From Laspinema olomoucense D3a (lineage in GTDB: Bacteria > Cyanobacteriota > Cyanobacteriia > Cyanobacteriales > Laspinemataceae), in NCBI RefSeq assembly GCF_025370815.1, contig NZ_JAMXFB010000041.1: 62,893 bases of DNA. One strand, 5' to 3'. A model generated the notes under the pieces. It ran no database searches. It was not told the DNA's origin and saw nothing but the letters and a program-made list of their open reading frames with translations. This document shows, piece by piece, positions 15,358 through 61,291 of this stretch. The number at the start of each line of letters is the position of its first letter. Position 1 is the first letter of the stretch. The translations under genes were made by a program, and so were the position numbers.

Positions 15358-15855
15358 TTAAATTGAATTCTCTTCTTGGCCTTGGAACAACTCTAATAAA
15401 AACTTTTGAGACTTCTTAGCCTCTGGAAAAAATGCAATTCTGGGTAACGCTAAACCCAAAATTAACATTCCCATCGGAATTAAAAAGGCCAGATTAAAAA
15501 TTTCCTTGAATAGGGCTTCTCCCAGAATCATCAAGGCTACTACTGCAAGCATAATCAGCCATAAAGACATAAAAATAATCACAAAAGGGTGCAGTTTTAT
15601 TTCTATTTTGATTTGACTGCCTCTACCGTGGGCCTGAATTTGACCTTCAATTTCAGGTAAAAAAGAATTGCGGTTGTAGATAACTCGGGAAATCTTAAAA
15701 GAGTGTTCGGCAATTTGTCCCTGGTACGGTTTTTTCGACCTACGCCAACGGAACTGGATTGGGTTGGAGGTAGGTGTCACCACTTCACTTAATTTTTTGA
15801 GAACCTCTTCGGGACTCAGATAAGTCGTCATCGTAAACCGTTTAGAAGGAAACAT
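15358..15855 (-). CDS. Paralog 1 of a tandem three-gene family: ~160-aa protein with N-terminal soluble domain and C-terminal double TM hairpin
   Basis: Clearly homologous to the ORFs at 16035-16517 and 16604-17089 (MFPSKRFTMTTYLSPEEV..YQGQIAEHSFKISRVIYNRNSFLPEIEGQI..). Two C-terminal hydrophobic helices. Confidence 0.6.
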   Translation of the reverse strand: MFPSKRFTMTTYLSPEEVLKKLSEVVTPTSNPIQFRWRRSKKPYQGQIAEHSFKISRVIYNRNSFLPEIEGQIQAHGRGSQIKIEIKLHPFVIIFMSLWLIMLAVVALMILGEALFKEIFNLAFLIPMGMLILGLALPRIAFFPEAKKSQKFLLELFQGQEENSI

Positions 15856-16034
15856 CTGCTCACCATTAGGGGTTATTTTTTACAATTGTCGCATAATTAT
15901 TTATCGGATTTGAAGCGGGATTAAATTCCGACTAAATTTACTCATTTATAAACTTAAATATTCGGTATTTCAGGGACAAAATAAAAAAACCTTTTTAAGT
16001 CAAATTGGAGAAATCATCTCCACGTTATAGTTTA

Positions 16035-16517
16035 TCATTCTTTCAAAAAATTGATTAAAAATTTTTTGGAATGGTGAGCCATGACAATGAAAGTAATCAT
16101 CGGGATTGCTAAACCCGCTAAGAAAATCGCAATCGAGCTTAAAAATACTGCAAAAGATGGGCTCTTAAGCATCATTAAAGAGACCCAAGTTGCTCTTCCC
16201 GCAGTTATTAGCCATATTCCCAAAAAAATCATAACCCCTGGATGAATTTTAATTTGGATATCGATTTGACTCCCGCTATTATGTTCCCTAATCTGGCCAT
16301 CAAGTACCGGGAAAAAAGACTCACGATAGCGATCGGAACTGAGATGGTAGATAATTTTGGAAATTTGAAAAGAGTCTTGATGGATTTTTCCGCGATAGAG
16401 TGGAGTGATACTTTTTTCCCCTATCTGATAGTCGGTGTCCACAATTCCCATTAATTTTTCCCGAACTTGGTAGGGTTTTAGTGGGCTTTGAATAGTAAAT
16501 TTTTGATAAGTCAACAT
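16035..16517 (-). CDS. Paralog 2 (more divergent) of the tandem three-gene family
   Basis: YRGKIHQDSFQISKIIYHLSS...FPVLDGQIREHNSGSQIDIQIKIHPGVMIFLGIWLI aligns with paralogs 1 and 3. Same size and TM topology. Confidence 0.55.
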   Translation of the reverse strand: MLTYQKFTIQSPLKPYQVREKLMGIVDTDYQIGEKSITPLYRGKIHQDSFQISKIIYHLSSDRYRESFFPVLDGQIREHNSGSQIDIQIKIHPGVMIFLGIWLITAGRATWVSLMMLKSPSFAVFLSSIAIFLAGLAIPMITFIVMAHHSKKFLINFLKE

Positions 16518-16603
16518 TTTTTAATTCTCACCCCTATGTTGTAAAATTATTTACAGCTTTTTTAGTGATAGAGGTATAAAATTTTGCCTCTATCACTCTT
16601 AAA

Positions 16604-17089
16604 TTAAAAATTTTCACTCCCTTGAAACAATTCCATAAAAAACTGTTTAGACTTCTTAGCTTCCGGGATAAATCCAATCAAGGGTAACACTAAACCAAAA
16701 ATGAACATTCCCACAGGCATTAAGAACAAAGGGTGAAATTCTTCAAACAGGACCGCTAAAAACATCAAGGCAGCTTGTCCAACTATACCCAGCCAAACGC
16801 ACATAAAAATCAAAACAGCCCGGTGCAGTTTCATTTGAATTTCGATTTTACTGCCTTTAGCTTGGGCGTGAATTCGCCCCTCAATCTGGGGTAAAAAAGA
16901 ATTGCGATAGGAAATGATTCGAGAAATTTTGAAAGAATGTTCGCCGATTTGTCCCTGGTAGGGTTTTTCCGGCCTTTTCCACCGCACCGGGACCCATTGA
17001 GGGGGAGGTTCCACAACTGCTATTAATTTTTCCTGGACTTCATGGGGACTGAGATAAGTGGTCATTGTAAACCTTTGAAAGGGAAACAT
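16604..17089 (-). CDS. Paralog 3 of the tandem three-gene family
   Basis: MFPFQRFTMTTYLSPHEV...YQGQIGEHSFKISRIISYRNSFLPQIEGRIHAQAKGSKIEIQMKLH is about 60% identical to paralog 1. Confidence 0.6.
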   Translation of the reverse strand: MFPFQRFTMTTYLSPHEVQEKLIAVVEPPPQWVPVRWKRPEKPYQGQIGEHSFKISRIISYRNSFLPQIEGRIHAQAKGSKIEIQMKLHRAVLIFMCVWLGIVGQAALMFLAVLFEEFHPLFLMPVGMFIFGLVLPLIGFIPEAKKSKQFFMELFQGSENF

Positions 17090-17132: not shown

Positions 17133-17205
17133 TAGAGCCATTAATACCCAATCCGGTTGTGATAGATCTATAAATACCCCACCCGATCGGGTGCGGGTAT
17201 TTATT
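17133..17205. repeat. Partial copy of the interspersed hairpin repeat family (aatccggttgtgatagatctataaatacccacccgatcgggtgcgggta)
   Basis: Matches the elements at 57321-57447 and 58745-58872 over the cggaatccggttgtaatagatccataaaaacccgcaccc...ggtgggt module. Confidence 0.55.
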
Positions 17206-18998
17206 TAGTCCAAGCCCCTATCTTCCAGCATCCCCCGGAATTTGTGTTTGCGGGCGTGGATTTGTAGCAATTCTTGACGATAAGTTTTCCAGCGGGCCCA
17301 CTGCTCTTTTTGAATATAAGCTGCCCGCACTTTTTTCAACCAGTCGATCGCCTGATTATAGAATTCAGATTTTTTGCGATCTAAAATCGATTCGGCAAGG
17401 GGTTGCGCCGTTTCAATCACCCAGTCTGGACGGTGTTTAATCGCTGCATCCATGACCCGATGCACCAACTCTATCTCATAGGAACCAAAGCCTTCTACGG
17501 CGGCGATCGCCTCATCAATTAACCCTTCACTTAGGAAAATATCTACTTTAACCTCAGTTTTGTTCCAAATTTTATGTTCCCTCAGAGAATTTAATAAATT
17601 GGGCTGGTATTTGAACCAATTTTCAGCGGCTAATTCTTTTATTTTAAAATAATCCCTCGAAGTAGGGTTATCGTAAAAAGCGAATTTTCTCGCCTCCAGT
17701 TCTACCTCAGTATTTCCTAATTCTTCCGCTAAATCAGCGGTCCAACTGGCCAGTTTATATTGGGAATCTCCCCGTAATTTTAGCCCCATTACCCCGACTT
17801 CCAGGGCTGGGCTAACTTCCCCATTACTGCGTAAGGTTTGCCCCAGGGATAAGGCTTCTTCCATTGTTTTCATTTGGGTCCGGGCGGCTTCCATTGCTTC
17901 CGTAGTTCGTCCTAAACTGCCCAACATGGTAAGATATTGTTTTATTTTGCCTTGGGCTTTAGCCAGGTTCAAATACTCCTGATATCGCTCTTGCCGATCC
18001 AGAATTTTTAAGCGAATTAATACCAAATCCGGGGAAGCATTGGGGGAAGAATTTTCCGCTATTCCTGGTTCGGATAGGGTTCCTTGGAGGGCTTGTACCA
18101 AATGCGGTTCATCCCATCCTTCGCTGAGGGATTCTAAGCTGAGGGGAAATTCGGTACTCCACTCCTCTTGGAGGATTTTTAAGCGCGATCGCCACTGTTC
18201 CACTTCACGGGAACTAAGGGATTCGCTGAGAATCGCTTCGGCGATCGCCTCATCCACTGCTGTGACAATTTCATCGGACTCAATCCCATACTGTTCCACC
18301 CGGTCCCAATCGGCTGCACAAGCTGAGGCAATAGCTTCTAACACGATTAAAGCATTATAACTTTCCCCAATTTCTATTAATCCTTGAATATTATCAATTA
18401 AATCTAACAACTCCTCGGTTACCGGGTCATCTTCACCGTCTAAGCTTTCAAAATACCGCATCCCTTCATATAAAATATCCCGCGCCTGCTGACGAAAAGG
18501 AGCCGGATTGATAGGGGAAGGACGCTGATTATTGGGTGATTGTATTGGACTGATTATTTCATTATTTAAGGTAATGTAATAGTCAATTTCATCAATAATT
18601 TCGGGTCTTTGTTTAACTAACTCTTGCACTAGACCTTGGATTTGGGCCCGGTTGAGCTGAGCGAGCAATTGCTCCAAAGTCGGACGCTCTTGAATAGTTT
18701 CTGGTTGCCGCATTACCACCAATAAGGTAGCGACAATATGTTCACACCATTCAGACTTATCATCAGCACAAGAACAGGTCACCGAGGTCAAACAGCCCTG
18801 CTCAAACCCCACCCGAACCCGATAGGGTTGGTCTGCATTATCCATCACTTCGGCATTGAGTAAATTGCCTCGCCGAGTCACGGAGGTTACATTGCCCGCT
18901 TCATAATCCGACTGGCCTTTGCTAAACAATGCAGGGGCAGATTTCTGGCGAATGAGGCGATCGGTCAAGTCAGGAGTTTTAGACATAAAGCAATCCAA
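17205..18998 (-). CDS. SWIM zinc-finger domain protein
   Basis: CSCADDKSEWCEHIV matches the SWIM CxC-Xn-CxH signature near the N-terminus. Remainder helical and acidic, no family recognised. Confidence 0.6.
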   Translation of the reverse strand: MDCFMSKTPDLTDRLIRQKSAPALFSKGQSDYEAGNVTSVTRRGNLLNAEVMDNADQPYRVRVGFEQGCLTSVTCSCADDKSEWCEHIVATLLVVMRQPETIQERPTLEQLLAQLNRAQIQGLVQELVKQRPEIIDEIDYYITLNNEIISPIQSPNNQRPSPINPAPFRQQARDILYEGMRYFESLDGEDDPVTEELLDLIDNIQGLIEIGESYNALIVLEAIASACAADWDRVEQYGIESDEIVTAVDEAIAEAILSESLSSREVEQWRSRLKILQEEWSTEFPLSLESLSEGWDEPHLVQALQGTLSEPGIAENSSPNASPDLVLIRLKILDRQERYQEYLNLAKAQGKIKQYLTMLGSLGRTTEAMEAARTQMKTMEEALSLGQTLRSNGEVSPALEVGVMGLKLRGDSQYKLASWTADLAEELGNTEVELEARKFAFYDNPTSRDYFKIKELAAENWFKYQPNLLNSLREHKIWNKTEVKVDIFLSEGLIDEAIAAVEGFGSYEIELVHRVMDAAIKHRPDWVIETAQPLAESILDRKKSEFYNQAIDWLKKVRAAYIQKEQWARWKTYRQELLQIHARKHKFRGMLEDRGLD

Positions 18999-19154: not shown

Positions 19155-21833
19155 TTATTCAATGGGTTGACACTCAGGCGATCGCAACCCGGGAAAAGAA
19201 ACGCTTCCCTCGGGTATCGCCGCCATTAACTCAATTGTTCCTTGCGCATTCCGTCGCCAAGCAGTCGCTTCCTGGAGTGGGGAAGACGGATTTGTAGAGG
19301 AAGGGGTGCGACGGCGAGGAGGTTCAACGGTAACCGTTTCCCCCTCTAAATCTTGGAAAAAGTTGCGTAAATCATGCCAAATCGGTTGGGTTTGGAGGGG
19401 TTGAGTCGGGTCCGTGGGTAATCCTCCTCGTCCCGAAATGGTAAAAGAATTCTCATCGGATAAGGCACAACCCACAAAGTTATTATCCCTCGCTTGACCC
19501 AGCATTTCGGGTAATTCTACTAATCCCGTGGAGGGATTAACATCAGGGGTATTAATTGTGACACTGCCGCTAAACTCCGCCCCGAGTTCGGAGGTGGCGG
19601 TAATATCACTTTGTGGCGTGAGTTCTGTGCGAAAATTAGTCCCCAAGATGCCTTGGGCGGCGATCGCCACGCGACCCCCAAAACTGGCGCTGGAATTCGC
19701 TGTAATATCACTATTCTCTACGGCAACTAACGTATCTGTAGCGATCGCAATATTCCCTCCCGTCCCACTCCCACTGGCATTTGTGGTAATTCCCCCTTGG
19801 TTACGCAACCGAATATCCCGCGATTCAATAAAAATATTCGCTTGATCCCCTTGCACCGTTTCTGCGGCGATCGCAGCATTGTTAACCACAATCTGCCGCC
19901 CCACAATTTCAATATTCCCGGCGATTCCCGTCTTCTCACTACTGGCCGAAATGATGGCGCGATCGCCTAAAATTAACTGTCCCGTCTGCAAGCGCATCGT
20001 CCCCGCATTCCCCGTCTCTGTAGAAGCAGCAAAAATTCCTGTAGGAAATAGGATTCCAGACTCATCCGGGAAGAAAAATCCCCCCTCTATTGCCGGAACT
20101 GCACCGGATAAAACAATCGCCTCAGTTGCCAAAATCTCCAAATTTCCCCCATCTCCAGCGCCAAATGTACCCACACTAATCTGTGCGCCATCCCGCAAAA
20201 TCAACCTCGGAGTTTCAATCCGTAAATTATCTCCATTCCCTTCTCCCAAAGTATCACTAAAAACAATCACCGGATTGCCAACGCGATCGACTCCCCCAAA
20301 TTCCATCACTTCCGTTGCCTGCAAAAGCACAGGACCGCCATCCCCCGCCTCAAAGGTGGTACTACCCACATTCGCCCCATTCAGAATCCGTAATACTGCC
20401 GTCTCAATCTCTAAACTTCCCGCATTTCCCATTGCCTCCGGGTCTACGGTACTTTCCGCCCCTGTGGGCCTTAGCACATCGTTACTGGAATTCAATCCAT
20501 CAAAAACCACCGACTCCAAGGCGCGAATTACCAGGGGTGCACCATTTCCCTGACCCCGGGTTCCCGTGATCATGCCTGCCCCATCTTTGACCAACACAGA
20601 ACCCGCCTGAATCTCAATGCCGCCTGCATTTCCGACCCCTTCGGGTGCTACATCTGCCGAGGCGATGGTGATGAAATCTTCTCTCCCCTGTCCATCGAAT
20701 ACCACGGACTCGCGGGCGGTAATTTGCAGTTTACCGCCATCCCCTTCCCCGGATGTGCTAGTAGAAATTATCGCACTTGTGGCGGAAAAGGTGGTAGTAT
20801 TCAAAGTGATGTTACCGCCATCGCCAACCCCGTTGGGTTGGACTTCATTGGCGATCGCACTCTCTTCCGTTAAAACAATGTTTCCCGTGGTATCAATTTC
20901 GATATCTCCTGCTTGTACACCCGGTGTTCCTGACCCTGGCGCAATCCCCCCGCGAATCTCAGACTGCCCTGAAATCAGCAGATTCTCGACTTGAATGGCG
21001 ATACTTCCACCCCCTGCACCGGCCACATCCACTCGCGCCCCATTCGTGAGATGGAGTGGCGATCGCTCGACGGTTTCCGGCAGTTTGAGTGCGTTTCCCC
21101 CTGGTAATTCCACCACTCCCGCCTCGGAGATTCCCCCCAAAGTGACAGTTCCACCGGGAACCCGTAATTGTCCCCCCTCCAGGGTAATCTCACCCCCAAC
21201 TAGGGTTAAGGTTTGATTCGGCAGCACAGTTAGAACCGAATCCCTCACAAAAATGCTCTCGGGATTGGGTCCATATTGTAACCCGATGGGGACATTAACG
21301 CTCAAAATAGGGGATGAATCAGGGTTTGTGGCGCTAAAGGCGCGATCGTCAGGAAATAACACACTGTGGGCGGTACTCCCGACAAAAGAACCGCCTAGAT
21401 TCAGGGTGGCATTCGGTCCGAAGGCAATGCCACTGGGATTAATTAAAAATAAATTCGCGCTGCCATTAGCGGCGATCGCCCCATCAATTTGGGACAGTTT
21501 GCCTCCGGTAATGCGAGTAATAATATTAGCGATAGTGGTGGAATTATTAAAAAGTGCAGCAGTTCCCGTCGGGATAGAAAATTCCTGGAAACTATGGAAC
21601 AAATTACTACCGGCAGCAGTTCCCCCCTCAATCGTGAGGGTATTGCCGTTGATCTGAACCCCCGAAGGATTCGGAAGGGTATTATCCGGTATAACCTGCG
21701 CCTGGAGGGATTTGTGTCCTAACCCTCCGTCCAAAAATAGCAAGGCACTCATCAAGCTAAAAATAGATAGATAATAATGACCCCAATACATCACGGTTTG
21801 GCAACTCCTGACTCTACTATTTTTCTTGATCAT
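19155..21833 (-). CDS. Two-partner-secretion (TpsA) exoprotein: filamentous-hemagglutinin N-terminal TPS domain followed by Gly/Thr-rich beta-helical repeats
   Basis: N-terminal signal/TM. NPSGVQINGNTLTIEGGTAAGSNLFHSFQEFSIPTGTAALFNN is the canonical haemagglutination-activity (TPS) domain motif. Long G/T/N-rich beta-helix-like repeats. Confidence 0.75.
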   Translation of the reverse strand: MIKKNSRVRSCQTVMYWGHYYLSIFSLMSALLFLDGGLGHKSLQAQVIPDNTLPNPSGVQINGNTLTIEGGTAAGSNLFHSFQEFSIPTGTAALFNNSTTIANIITRITGGKLSQIDGAIAANGSANLFLINPSGIAFGPNATLNLGGSFVGSTAHSVLFPDDRAFSATNPDSSPILSVNVPIGLQYGPNPESIFVRDSVLTVLPNQTLTLVGGEITLEGGQLRVPGGTVTLGGISEAGVVELPGGNALKLPETVERSPLHLTNGARVDVAGAGGGSIAIQVENLLISGQSEIRGGIAPGSGTPGVQAGDIEIDTTGNIVLTEESAIANEVQPNGVGDGGNITLNTTTFSATSAIISTSTSGEGDGGKLQITARESVVFDGQGREDFITIASADVAPEGVGNAGGIEIQAGSVLVKDGAGMITGTRGQGNGAPLVIRALESVVFDGLNSSNDVLRPTGAESTVDPEAMGNAGSLEIETAVLRILNGANVGSTTFEAGDGGPVLLQATEVMEFGGVDRVGNPVIVFSDTLGEGNGDNLRIETPRLILRDGAQISVGTFGAGDGGNLEILATEAIVLSGAVPAIEGGFFFPDESGILFPTGIFAASTETGNAGTMRLQTGQLILGDRAIISASSEKTGIAGNIEIVGRQIVVNNAAIAAETVQGDQANIFIESRDIRLRNQGGITTNASGSGTGGNIAIATDTLVAVENSDITANSSASFGGRVAIAAQGILGTNFRTELTPQSDITATSELGAEFSGSVTINTPDVNPSTGLVELPEMLGQARDNNFVGCALSDENSFTISGRGGLPTDPTQPLQTQPIWHDLRNFFQDLEGETVTVEPPRRRTPSSTNPSSPLQEATAWRRNAQGTIELMAAIPEGSVSFPGLRSPECQPIE

Positions 21834-57224: not shown

Positions 57225-57320
57225 GCGGCCCTCTAAGTCCTGGAGCCATCCCGGGTCTTCTCCAGCCCTCAAAAATTTCCTGATTCTCCCTTTCCTTTGA
57301 GGGGAAGGTTCGGGTCCGAT

Positions 57321-57447
57321 ACTGCATCCGGTTGTGACAGCCCTAACAATACTCTTGAGCCCGCGCAGGCGGGCTTTGTCTGTGTAGACCCACCCTTGAG
57401 GGTGCGGGTTTTTATAGACTTTGAGAACCGAATTCCGTATTATCCTC
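57321..57447 (-). repeat. ~125-bp interspersed repeat element (REP/MITE-like) with internal hairpins (acccgcaccc-N6-gggtgggt; agcccgc-N4-gcgggct); inverted copy of the element at 58745-58872
   Basis: The reverse complement aligns base-for-base with 58745-58872 over about 110 of 125 positions. Confidence 0.7.
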
Positions 57448-58744: not shown

Positions 58745-58872
58745 CGAATATTATACGGAATCCGGTTGTAATAGATCCATAAAAACCCGCACCCATGCAT
58801 GGTGGGTCTACACAGACGAAGCCCGCCTGCGCGGGCTGAAGAGAAAATCGACTTTTAACAACCGGATTTGGT
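58745..58872 (+). repeat. ~125-bp interspersed repeat element, direct-orientation copy (partner of 57321-57447)
   Basis: tacggaatccggttgtaatagatccataaaaacccgcaccc atgcat ggtgggtctacacagacgaagcccgcctgcgcgggctgaagag. Confidence 0.7.
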
Positions 58873-58873
58873 A

Positions 58874-59404
58874 TTATTGATTTAAAAAGGCGTGAAGGTG
58901 GGATGCAAGTTTCTCGATGATTCCTTCCTCATTTTGTAAACTTTTTTCAGCTTCGGCTTCGATGCGCGGGACTACATCCTCGGGCAAATTCAGGAGGGAA
59001 ACGAGTTTTTTGTAGGCTTGAGCTTCTTCGGCATTAATATTAGGCTCATCGGGGGTTCGGGAACTGGAGGCGATGACTTCATAGCCGATTTGCAGAACCA
59101 GTTCCCGTTCGGGTTGGGTGGCGAGTTTAGGGATTAATTCTTCCAGCGGGATGTTTTGCATCATATAGTCCCGCAGTTCTTCTTTGAGTTTGTCTTGTTG
59201 TTGGGGACTGACGGAAAATAAGCGACTAAAGCGATCGAGCATGATCTCGACTTCTTCTGCCCCGAGTTCGCCATCTGCCCATGCCATTGCGGTTACAACT
59301 CGTAACAGGTTCATCTGACGCGGGGTGATGGAGGGTGGGGGTGGGGGTTGGATTGCCATTGTTTTTTCCTCAAAATATGGGAAGTTGTGGCAAAACTTTA
59401 TCAT
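58874..59404 (-). CDS. TerB-like domain protein (tellurite-resistance TerB / DjlA-N-like fold)
   Basis: VTAMAWADGELGAEEVEIML is TerB-like. 176 aa, helical. Confidence 0.35.
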   Translation of the reverse strand: MIKFCHNFPYFEEKTMAIQPPPPPSITPRQMNLLRVVTAMAWADGELGAEEVEIMLDRFSRLFSVSPQQQDKLKEELRDYMMQNIPLEELIPKLATQPERELVLQIGYEVIASSSRTPDEPNINAEEAQAYKKLVSLLNLPEDVVPRIEAEAEKSLQNEEGIIEKLASHLHAFLNQ

Positions 59405-59497: not shown

Positions 59498-61291
59498 TTA
59501 CCCTTTAAGTTGACTCACCGAACTCCCTAACCAGCCTTTGAGATTATTCTGTTGAGTCGCGGTGGGATTCTGAATGGGGACGATATTGTAAGTTGTGGGA
59601 CGGGGTTGGGTGAGCACCGCCTCAACGGTTCGTAATTGTTCTTGATGGAAAACCGTAATTTGGATTTTGGACCCGGTTTGATAGTCTTTCAGGCGATCGC
59701 CCAAATCTTCGGCAGTAACGCGCATTCCATCGATCGCCAGTAACTCATCATCGGCATCGATTCCCGCCCGTTGCGCGGGTGAACCCATTTCTACAAATTT
59801 AATCGCCGCTTTACCATTTTCTGTCTTAACTGTCAAGCCCAAAAACGGTGCTGCATCATTATTTTCCACGGGTTGCACTTTTAACCCAAAGGGTTGCAGA
59901 TACTCATCCAGAGGTAATTCGGCAGTCCCGTGGATGTAGTCGTTAAAGAAGTCCGTTAAATCTTCTTCGGCAACGGATTCAATAATCTCTTTGAGTTCCT
60001 CATCGGTAAAGCCAATTTCTTGGGGTCCAAACCGCTGCCACATTTGCTGCATCACCTGATCCAGCGATCGCGCGTTGCCGGAGTTTGCCCGAATTCGCAA
60101 ATCTAACAACAGGGAAACTAATTCTCCTTTCAAATAATAGGAAATTTGGGAATTATCGCTATTCGCATCCCGGCGATACAGTTTAATCCAAGCATCCCAA
60201 CTCGATTCACTCAGGGGTTGATAACGACGTCCCGGAAGGGTTTGCAAGCGGGTAATATCTTTACTTAACCCTTGTAAGGCGATTTTTGCATCATAAATGC
60301 CCGCCCACAAGGGTAGCAGAATATCATAATAACTGGTGGTTCCTTCAGAAAACCACAGAGAAGTCGTGTAAGTTTCCCCTTCATAGTTAAACACTTCTAG
60401 GGGTTTGGGACGAATGCGCTTAACATTCCACAAGTGGAAAAACTCGTGGGCGACTAATTGAATGAAGCGGTTGTATTTTTCGGGATTTCTAAATCCAAAG
60501 CGGGGATAGTTCAAAGAACAGCTATTTTTATGTTCCAATCCGCCATAGCCTTGGGAGGAGAGATGGAGAATAAACAAATAGCGATCGTAAGGTAACCCTC
60601 CGAATAGCCGACTTTCGGTTTCAATGATTTTTTCAATATCCGAAATCAGCCGTTCAGCTTGGATATTTCCCTGGCCCCAAATAGCTAATTCATGGGGTTT
60701 ATGTTCGACTTCAAAATAATAAGATTGGTGCGTCCCAATTTCAAAAGGACTATCCACCAAGGTATCGAAATCCGGGGAGGTAAAGGTGTGGGGACGTCCC
60801 GATTTGGAAGGTAGTGAAGTGGTAACCCGCCATTCCGGTTTTGGGGGGATAACCTGAATGGAAATCGGGCTTTTTTCAAACCCGGGGATATAGAAGAAGA
60901 GGGCAGCACCGTTAAAATAGCCATGAGTGCTATCTAGGTGATTGGTTCGCACCGAGAGTTCATTGGCATAGATGCGATAGCGAACGATAATTTCCGAGAG
61001 TTCTGAGGTTTCGATTTGCCAGTGATTTTTGCTGACTTTACGCCAAGGTAGGGCGATTTCATTGGCGTCTTCAGCGGAGAATTCCTGGAGATGTTTGGCA
61101 TACTCCCGGACTAAATAGGAACCCGGAGTCCAAACGGGCATTTTCAAATCCAGGACCGATGCCCGCCATCCCCGCACTTTTAACATCACGTCAAACAGAT
61201 GAGATTCTGGCTCATACATGGCCACCTGATAGTAAACATCGGGGGCAATTCGAGGCATGGTACTCGGTGGAATTGTCGTTGCTTCAGTCAT
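59498..61291 (-). CDS. M61-family glycyl aminopeptidase with C-terminal PDZ domain
   Basis: HEFFHLWNVKRIRP HExxH zinc site with downstream Glu, in an M61-like context. C-terminal PDZ-like segment (GLTVKTENGKAAIKFVEMGSPAQRAGIDADDELLAIDG). Confidence 0.7.
   Translation of the reverse strand: MTEATTIPPSTMPRIAPDVYYQVAMYEPESHLFDVMLKVRGWRASVLDLKMPVWTPGSYLVREYAKHLQEFSAEDANEIALPWRKVSKNHWQIETSELSEIIVRYRIYANELSVRTNHLDSTHGYFNGAALFFYIPGFEKSPISIQVIPPKPEWRVTTSLPSKSGRPHTFTSPDFDTLVDSPFEIGTHQSYYFEVEHKPHELAIWGQGNIQAERLISDIEKIIETESRLFGGLPYDRYLFILHLSSQGYGGLEHKNSCSLNYPRFGFRNPEKYNRFIQLVAHEFFHLWNVKRIRPKPLEVFNYEGETYTTSLWFSEGTTSYYDILLPLWAGIYDAKIALQGLSKDITRLQTLPGRRYQPLSESSWDAWIKLYRRDANSDNSQISYYLKGELVSLLLDLRIRANSGNARSLDQVMQQMWQRFGPQEIGFTDEELKEIIESVAEEDLTDFFNDYIHGTAELPLDEYLQPFGLKVQPVENNDAAPFLGLTVKTENGKAAIKFVEMGSPAQRAGIDADDELLAIDGMRVTAEDLGDRLKDYQTGSKIQITVFHQEQLRTVEAVLTQPRPTTYNIVPIQNPTATQQNNLKGWLGSSVSQLKG

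Follow-up and report, generated by a model that had tools for sequence, protein, structure and literature searches.

Three tandem paralogues in Laspinema olomoucense

This work concerns a cluster of three consecutive genes in a 62,893 nt stretch of the genome of the filamentous cyanobacterium Laspinema olomoucense D3a (contig NZ_JAMXFB010000041.1), hereafter referred to as the window. All three are intact open reading frames (ORFs) on the minus strand: copy 1 (16604-17089) encodes 161 aa, copy 2 (16035-16517) encodes 160 aa, and copy 3 (15358-15855) encodes 165 aa. A preliminary description of the window had placed ORFs at these positions, without noting their strand, and interpreted them as a tandem triplication of homologous proteins of ~160 aa; both the frames and the homology proved to be real. 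In a three-way alignment, copy 1 shares 59% identity with copy 3 and 37% with copy 2, and there are 45 invariant columns, which include the Y-x-G-x-I...S-F-x-I-S..I...F-x-P...G-x-I core originally quoted. The family profile matches copy 1 at E = 3e-79, copy 2 at E = 3e-53 and copy 3 at E = 4e-75; at E-values of 3e-53 or better, the similarity extends far beyond shared composition.

The two spacers are AT-rich and close to the lengths first estimated (~180 and ~90 bp). That between copies 1 and 2 (16518-16603, minus strand) measures 86 bp with a GC content of 0.27, and includes the Shine-Dalgarno-like GGGGTGAG of copy 2 and an imperfect inverted repeat with 16-nt arms at 16564-16597. That between copies 2 and 3 (15856-16034, minus strand) measures 179 bp with a GC content of 0.30, and contains a weak terminator-like hairpin at 16006-16022. 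The possibility that these spacers harbour a regulatory RNA or a conserved hairpin was rejected, as Rfam returned no match and the inverted repeat is not kept in orthologous loci, in which only the Shine-Dalgarno and start region is conserved. The suggestion that each copy carries its own promoter was not supported: the seven sigma-70-like matches are at chance level, compared with 5.6 +/- 2.4 in shuffled sequences, and just one falls within a spacer on the coding strand.

Each of the three genes is preceded by a GGTGA-type Shine-Dalgarno-like motif, as read from the sequence. The orthologue of copy 1 in L. olomoucense (P0001), which is 99% identical and labelled "hypothetical" by NCBI, is annotated from Met9 as a protein of 153 aa, a start that cuts off the N-terminal MFPxQRF strand. 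Because this strand is conserved family-wide, and at least 90% of sequences have P3, copy 1 is preferably read from the 161-aa start, and the NCBI start codon of P0001 has probably been mis-called.

A large and uncurated bacterial family

An exhaustive profile search of representatives of 50%-identity clusters recovered 6,271 proteins at E <= 1e-3, 3,354 at E <= 1e-10 and 529 at E <= 1e-30, nearly all being 158-185 aa in length and matched over their full length. This corrected the size suggested by a word-indexed search, which had returned 31 proteins. When one genome per species was scanned, 160 loci emerged across many phyla, including oscillatorian cyanobacteria, Chloroflexota, Nitrospirota, Acidobacteriota, Gammaproteobacteria, Alteromonadales among them, and other Proteobacteria, as well as many Bacteroidota, such as Flavobacterium, Chryseobacterium, Mucilaginibacter, Saprospiraceae and Chitinophagaceae. 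Family members were also detected by tblastn on 37 plasmids, comprising 32 from Leptospira interrogans, four from Nostoc and one from Chondrinema. Longer members were searched for domain fusions, and had only N-terminal extensions and fusions of two family units.

In agreement with the preliminary description, in which no characterised function was recognised, the three copies have no match in Pfam, NCBIfam, PADLOC or PHROGs (with Pfam and PADLOC searched to E <= 1), and no Pfam match was found at E <= 0.01 among 44 diverse members. Sub-threshold matches to JLPA, DUF3764, Claudin_2, T6SS_Burk_ExIF and HIG_1_N were rejected as chance. Every source labels the members as "hypothetical", none has a precomputed Pfam domain, and literature searches turned up nothing on the family, only papers on KA1 domains and on Leptospira plasmids.

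As judged by these searches, this is a large, multi-phylum and uncurated family, rather than a small cyanobacterial curiosity. It spans thousands of sequence clusters and at least seven phyla, extending to the plasmids of the pathogen L. interrogans. Lacking any Pfam, NCBIfam, PADLOC or PHROG model, any name or any literature, it therefore represents well-defined protein "dark matter", for which the fold can be predicted with confidence and a conserved site is clearly evident. A formal definition of the family would allow both the construction of a database family model and the correction of start-codon annotations.

A predicted cytoplasmic domain joined to a membrane hairpin

AlphaFold2 (AF2) models built with family alignments have the same topology for copy 1 (predicted local distance difference test, pLDDT, of 84.5; predicted template modelling score, pTM, of 0.73) and copy 2 (pLDDT of 88.3; pTM of 0.78). 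In copy 1, strand beta1 (residues 4-11) and helix alpha1 (15-25) are followed by a variable basic loop and strands beta2-beta5 (44-88), after which two helices, of 25 residues (90-114) and 40 residues (120-160), are joined by a short acidic turn. The layout is that of a beta-alpha-beta4 domain at residues 1-88, a first transmembrane (TM) helix at ~90-114, a second at ~120-141, and a C-terminal amphipathic helix extending to residue 160. Hydropathy profiles of all three copies contain two hydrophobic segments in these positions (~90-114 and ~120-141), with a maximum 19-residue Kyte-Doolittle mean of 2.4-3.0. Hence the soluble N-terminal domain and C-terminal TM pair originally proposed are borne out, as a domain of ~88 aa and two helices ending in an amphipathic tail, by AF2 for copies 1 and 2 and by hydropathy for all three.

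The distribution of charges in copy 1, with KLHR before TM1, an acidic EEFHP in the turn and EAKKSK after TM2, fits the positive-inside rule, which argues for an N-in/C-in topology with a cytoplasmic domain. The N-terminal domains of copies 1 and 3 have an isoelectric point (pI) of ~10. Residue couplings were analysed by a rough mean-field direct coupling analysis (DCA) of 352 sequences (Meff of 281), in which artefacts of indels and alignment register, arising at the N-terminus and within the variable loop, took up most of the ranking. The few usable pairs include an antiparallel series between TM1 and TM2 (107-126, 104-129, 100-129 and 96-132, with i+j of ~228-233), and others linking the sheet to the end of TM2 and the tail (5-140, 44-147 and 44-150); these are taken as suggestive only.

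When the fold was compared with the Protein Data Bank (PDB) using Foldseek, the top 50 matches were all of the SRPBCC/Bet v 1 type, with TM-scores of ~0.35 and a best E-value of 4e-4. In its modelled shape, the cytoplasmic domain is KA1/helix-grip-like.

Stepwise duplication and relaxed purifying selection

The survey of copy number and neighbourhood in related cyanobacteria, recommended when the cluster was first described, identified a single syntenic site across the Laspinema/Oscillatoria clade, at which a gene for a 597-aa SWIM-like protein is followed by the family genes, a PfkB kinase gene, and then genes for a ComF-like protein and a phosphoenolpyruvate (PEP)-utilising enzyme. This site holds one copy in L. 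palackyanum D2a; two copies in O. acuminata PCC 6304, Laspinema sp. D2d and the loci L007 and L008; and three copies in the window, L005 and L013. Triplication is limited to this clade, outside which 73 of 82 loci have a single copy. A neighbour-joining tree resolved three orthogroups, with copy 3 grouping with its counterparts in L005 and L013. Together with the presence of one, two or three copies at the same site, this tree indicates two successive duplications within the clade, the earlier separating copy 2 and the later deriving copy 3 from the copy-1 lineage. Tandem duplication is, by itself, ordinary genome evolution. Nevertheless, the series of one, two and three copies at one site, combined with the divergence of copy 2, offers a natural system for the study of sub- and neofunctionalisation.

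The ratio of nonsynonymous to synonymous divergence (dN/dS) relative to orthologues was 0.30-0.43 for copy 1, 0.24-0.41 for copy 2 and 0.59-0.67 for copy 3. The corresponding values for the flanking genes were 0.08-0.17 for PfkB, at similar dS, and 0.24-0.33 for the 597-aa gene. Such ratios show purifying selection on all copies, 3-5 times more relaxed than that on the adjacent PfkB; being below 1 yet above PfkB, they mark the copies as constrained but fast-evolving.

The synonymous divergence of copy 3 is itself unusual, as dS is just 0.14 between 15358-15855 of the window and its orthologues in L005 (9232-9729) and L013 (9237-9734), as against 0.34-0.48 when copies 1 and 2, or either of the flanking genes, are compared with the same genomes of the clade. 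Copy 3 may have recombined or been transferred between lineages recently, or may be under an unusual codon constraint.

These data bear on whether the ORFs might be annotation artefacts, or decaying pseudogenes without functional consequence. Such an explanation could draw on their low GC content (0.37-0.41, relative to 0.47 for the window), their AT-rich surroundings and the absence of any database name. However, it is refuted, and retains only a vanishing probability, given the three intact frames, the thousands of homologues with the same length and architecture, the dN/dS values well below 1 in every orthogroup, the confident AF2 folds of copies 1 and 2, and the conserved start regions and Shine-Dalgarno motifs. 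Rather, the three genes are functional tandem duplicates within one large, uncurated bacterial family.

A putative interfacial binding site

Four residues (G46, F53, P67 and G71) do not vary among diverse members, and a further twelve (P3, L13, I59, R62, N63, S64, F65, V92, F95, W99, F140 and E143) are at least 90% conserved. All three copies match, over their full length, the profile of the family defined here, a "~165-aa RNSF-loop / TM-hairpin" family. Copies 1 and 3 retain every one of these residues, whereas copy 2, though it matches the profile at the E-value given above, lacks P3, N63 and E143. The conserved polar residues lie in the beta3-beta4 loop (R62, N63 and S64) and at the cytoplasmic end of TM2 (E143), while the conserved aromatic residues lie at the inner ends of TM1 (F95 and W99) and TM2 (F140). 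The near-invariant residues would cluster at the boundary between cytoplasm and membrane, in what is predicted to be one binding site.

Copy 2 departs from this pattern consistently. Its losses of P3, N63 and E143 are found in 7/7 orthologues, and that of P125 in most; its gains comprise a 6-aa insertion ahead of the RNSF loop and a conserved Arg in the middle of TM1. In all seven members of the orthogroup, N63 is replaced by E and E143 by M or I. If read as the relocation of an acidic group, this exchange suggests that positions 63 and 143 lie next to each other, and hints at a single site made up of the RNSF loop and the helix ends. That copy 2 has kept its fold, and remains under selection, despite the loss of these residues indicates either neofunctionalisation or a role as a partner subunit.

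Taken together, the best explanation is that the trio are duplicated members of a family of stand-alone, oligomeric inner-membrane modules that would bind a lipid or other ligand at the membrane interface. The KA1/helix-grip-like domain would lie flat on the inner leaflet, and the R62-N63-S64-F65-x-P67 loop, with F95, W99, F140 and E143, would form one interfacial binding site, either for the head-group of a lipid or for a peptide or small ligand of amphipathic character. The protein would work as a dimer or higher oligomer, and its gene would act alone, without a dedicated partner gene. Copies 1 and 3 would be canonical units, either partly redundant or diverged in specificity, whereas copy 2, with its acidic residue moved from 143 to 63 and its mid-TM1 arginine, would be neofunctionalised or a partner subunit. 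A dimeric working unit is plausible, because two natural proteins hold two complete units in one chain (P0040, of 391 aa, and P0080, of 405 aa). As a whole, this explanation is put forward tentatively, with its chances judged to be somewhat short of even, and its functional part, the oligomeric interfacial binding module, is proposed with low confidence. R62, N63, S64, E143 and W99 provide experimenters with concrete targets.

Several considerations weigh against this interpretation. Firstly, the family has no characterised homologue. Secondly, the likeness of fold is unaccompanied by detectable sequence similarity, as nothing relevant emerged when all PDB sequences were searched with the family profile. 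Thirdly, the beta-alpha-beta4 two-layer sandwich is a common shape, and therefore offers weak functional guidance. Fourthly, a protein with a two-TM anchor has no need of a KA1-like lipid-binding domain for membrane targeting. Finally, dimerisation is proposed from just two fusion proteins, and the putative contact between the RNSF loop and the helix ends from conservation, one correlated substitution and weak DCA signals.

A further possibility is that the trio assembles obligately into a single hetero-oligomeric membrane complex, of which copy 2 would be the dedicated non-canonical subunit, rather than acting redundantly or as independent homo-oligomers. Seven of the ten syntenic loci with the upstream 597-aa gene (the window, L001-L008 and L013) have kept both copy 1 and copy 2, side by side and in an unchanged order, with just 69-203 bp between them. 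The purifying selection on copy 2, in the face of its lost family-invariant residues, fits such a role; the buried TM1 Arg of copy 2 may need a partner; and the natural fusions suggest two units can work in one assembly. However, the predominance of single copies, both in the 73 of 82 loci outside the clade and in one Laspinema genome (L002), implies the ancestral state was a self-sufficient protein, and copy 3 is absent from most members of the clade. An obligate hetero-complex is consequently regarded as rather doubtful, albeit compatible with the interfacial-module explanation preferred here.

The upstream boundary of the cluster

On its upstream side, the cluster is bounded by a 36-nt element and an overlapping hairpin, together spanning 17144-17204. 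The element belongs to an interspersed intergenic family (direct-repeat family D11, with the core ATAC..AATCCGGTTGTGATAGATCTATAAATACCC) that has three copies in the window, at 17144-17179, 57319-57354 and 58753-58788, sharing 75-86% identity; it may be a remnant of a miniature inverted-repeat transposable element (MITE), a regulatory site or a terminator module. The preliminary description had the cluster abutting an interspersed hairpin repeat, which is accurate for the 36-nt element, but not for the perfect hairpin at 17170-17204, as this is unique in the window. The hairpin is called as terminator-like on the minus strand, lies directly 3' of the stop codon of the 597-aa gene, and is probably the terminator of that gene.

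The 597-aa gene (17205-18998, minus strand) is found directly upstream of family genes throughout the Laspinema/Oscillatoria clade, and not elsewhere. Its product has a SWIM-type CxC...CxH near the N-terminus (VTCSCADDKSEWCEH) and no Pfam match, while residues 11-143 match the PADLOC defence candidate PDC-S62 (E = 3e-14). Further upstream, two genes from the trio, is a gene for an 892-aa protein with a two-partner secretion (TPS) domain of the filamentous-haemagglutinin type (19155-21833, minus strand). Most loci of the Laspinema clade contain a relative of the TPS gene, which is absent from O. acuminata PCC 6304.

A second paralogous locus was considered at the far end of the window, where another copy of the interspersed repeat is found with a 176-aa ORF and a 597-aa ORF. 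This was rejected, as both ORFs are unrelated to those at the cluster: the former (58874-59404, minus strand) encodes a TerB-like protein, and the latter (59498-61291, minus strand) an M61 glycyl aminopeptidase with a PDZ domain, which merely has the same length as the SWIM-like protein.

Two other repetitive regions were observed elsewhere in the window. At 1851-2145, a 12-nt period (GGAGTTTCTGTG) occurs 13 times in register ahead of a repeat with a 15-nt period, and these arrays probably encode a low-complexity repeat protein on one strand or the other. At 42400-46000 there are repeated units of ~380 nt (repeat families D3, D6, D12 and D16), with conserved GATATCACCGATCGCAAACA motifs and embedded HIP1-like GCGATCGC sites, which look like the tandem PAS/PAC-type domains of a large sensor protein.

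Genomic context across phyla

A conserved partner gene was sought across the family, and rejected. The clustering of neighbours in 81 loci found clade-specific synteny only; the commonest Pfam family among 42 tightly linked same-strand neighbours occurs twice; and when the neighbourhood was widened to two genes, giving 149 neighbours at 42 diverse loci, the commonest family was that of the alpha/beta hydrolases, with four occurrences. The genes are therefore stand-alone, with no partner conserved across phyla. Around them lie ordinary metabolic genes, and the 25 most frequent Pfam families include neither a transposase nor an integrase. Individual contexts range widely: a Chitinophagaceae locus lies in a SusCD/GH20 context with a Tdi1-type immunity gene nearby, a Chloroflexota locus is within a run of small stress-type genes, and the Leptospira and Nostoc plasmid members are carried among cargo rich in toxin-antitoxin systems. 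In the case of L. interrogans, the member WP_000691822.1 is encoded at 19542-20018 of plasmid Laicp from serovar Lai (NC_025151.1; locus L086), and is kept on the 32 plasmids of this species, alongside MazEF, BrnT and VapC modules, nucleases and a transposase. Functional work could begin with this member, which may be both tractable and of medical relevance.

Such contexts raise the alternative of a role in genetic conflict, either as a membrane-disrupting abortive-infection or phage-exclusion effector, in which a sensor domain is combined with a two-TM pore former, or as an immunity protein against a membrane-targeting toxin, with the tandem copies representing arms-race diversification. The patchy distribution over many phyla, the presence on 37 plasmids, the lineage-specific tandem expansion and the faster evolution of the family relative to housekeeping genes are all as expected under this hypothesis, as are the Tdi1-type gene near the Chitinophagaceae locus, and the position of the trio itself, two genes downstream of a TPS exoprotein and beside the protein matching PDC-S62. 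However, none of the copies matches a PADLOC or PHROG model; the former includes the defence proteins of PADLOC-DB v2, for which no profile matched at E <= 1. When PADLOC was applied to the 149 neighbours, no model matched more than two proteins and there was no enrichment, with the recurrent matches being generic (a cysteine desulfurase as SspA/DndA, an AAA ATPase as IetA and MotB as ZorB). No homologue was detected by tblastn in 50,697 phage records, and no structural relative in a viral structure library, and a defence-island setting was accordingly rejected. Furthermore, the surroundings are predominantly metabolic, with mobile families outside the top 25, and members of the Laspinema/Oscillatoria clade carry the genes at a stable, syntenic position on the chromosome, flanked by the 597-aa gene and PfkB. 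O. acuminata has no TPS gene, yet keeps the pair of copies, and dN/dS is below 1 in every pair. Because the recurrent neighbour matches are generic and the contexts so varied, a conflict function lacks positive support, and is considered unlikely.

Comparison with known systems

The small size of these proteins, their combination of a cytoplasmic domain with two TM helices, and their occurrence on plasmids are all shared with two-TM defence effectors, such as SLATT, Cap15, PycTM and the two-TM effectors of retrons. However, those effectors differ in both domain order and fold, and the family described here has no PADLOC match, no linked sensor or cyclase gene, and no defence-island context.

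The closest matches by structure are instead the SRPBCC, Bet v 1, START and AHSA1 proteins. Nevertheless, the sheet has five strands in this family, as opposed to six or seven in the SRPBCC fold, and the TM hairpin occupies or interrupts the position of the "grip" helix. Nor was there a match to any SRPBCC profile among Polyketide_cyc, AHSA1, START, Bet_v_1 and COXG, with Polyketide_cyc, AHSA1 and START giving no Pfam match at E <= 1.

The remaining comparison is with KA1 domains, as represented by MARK/PAR-1, SAD/BRSK, Chk1, Kcc4/Gin4/Hsl1 and the C-terminal domain of AMPK-alpha. At the plasma membrane, KA1 domains bind phosphatidylserine on the cytoplasmic side, and clustering and autoinhibition are among the effects they can mediate (PMC4945140). 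The modelled domain shares their beta-alpha-beta4-alpha fold, while structural alignments yield only 4-13% identity, and no sequence relationship was detected: KA1 (PF02149) was matched neither by the three copies (Pfam, E <= 1) nor by the 44 diverse members (Pfam, E <= 0.01), and no KA1 chain was found in the PDB at E <= 1. The pI of ~10 in copies 1 and 3 would be compatible with KA1-type binding of acidic phospholipids, and is also expected from the positive-inside rule. Whereas KA1 is a eukaryotic, peripheral module at the C-terminus of kinases, the domain described here is bacterial, N-terminal, kinase-free and anchored by a TM hairpin. It is conceivable, if improbable, that the trio is the first recognised case of a widespread, hitherto overlooked class of bacterial inner-membrane proteins, in which a KA1/helix-grip-like domain for binding lipids or other ligands, either interrupted by a TM hairpin or fused to one, would act as an interfacial sensor of inner-leaflet lipid composition or of an amphipathic signal. 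Such proteins would be the prokaryotic integral-membrane counterpart of eukaryotic KA1 modules, elaborated in Laspinema into a hetero-oligomeric system of three paralogues.

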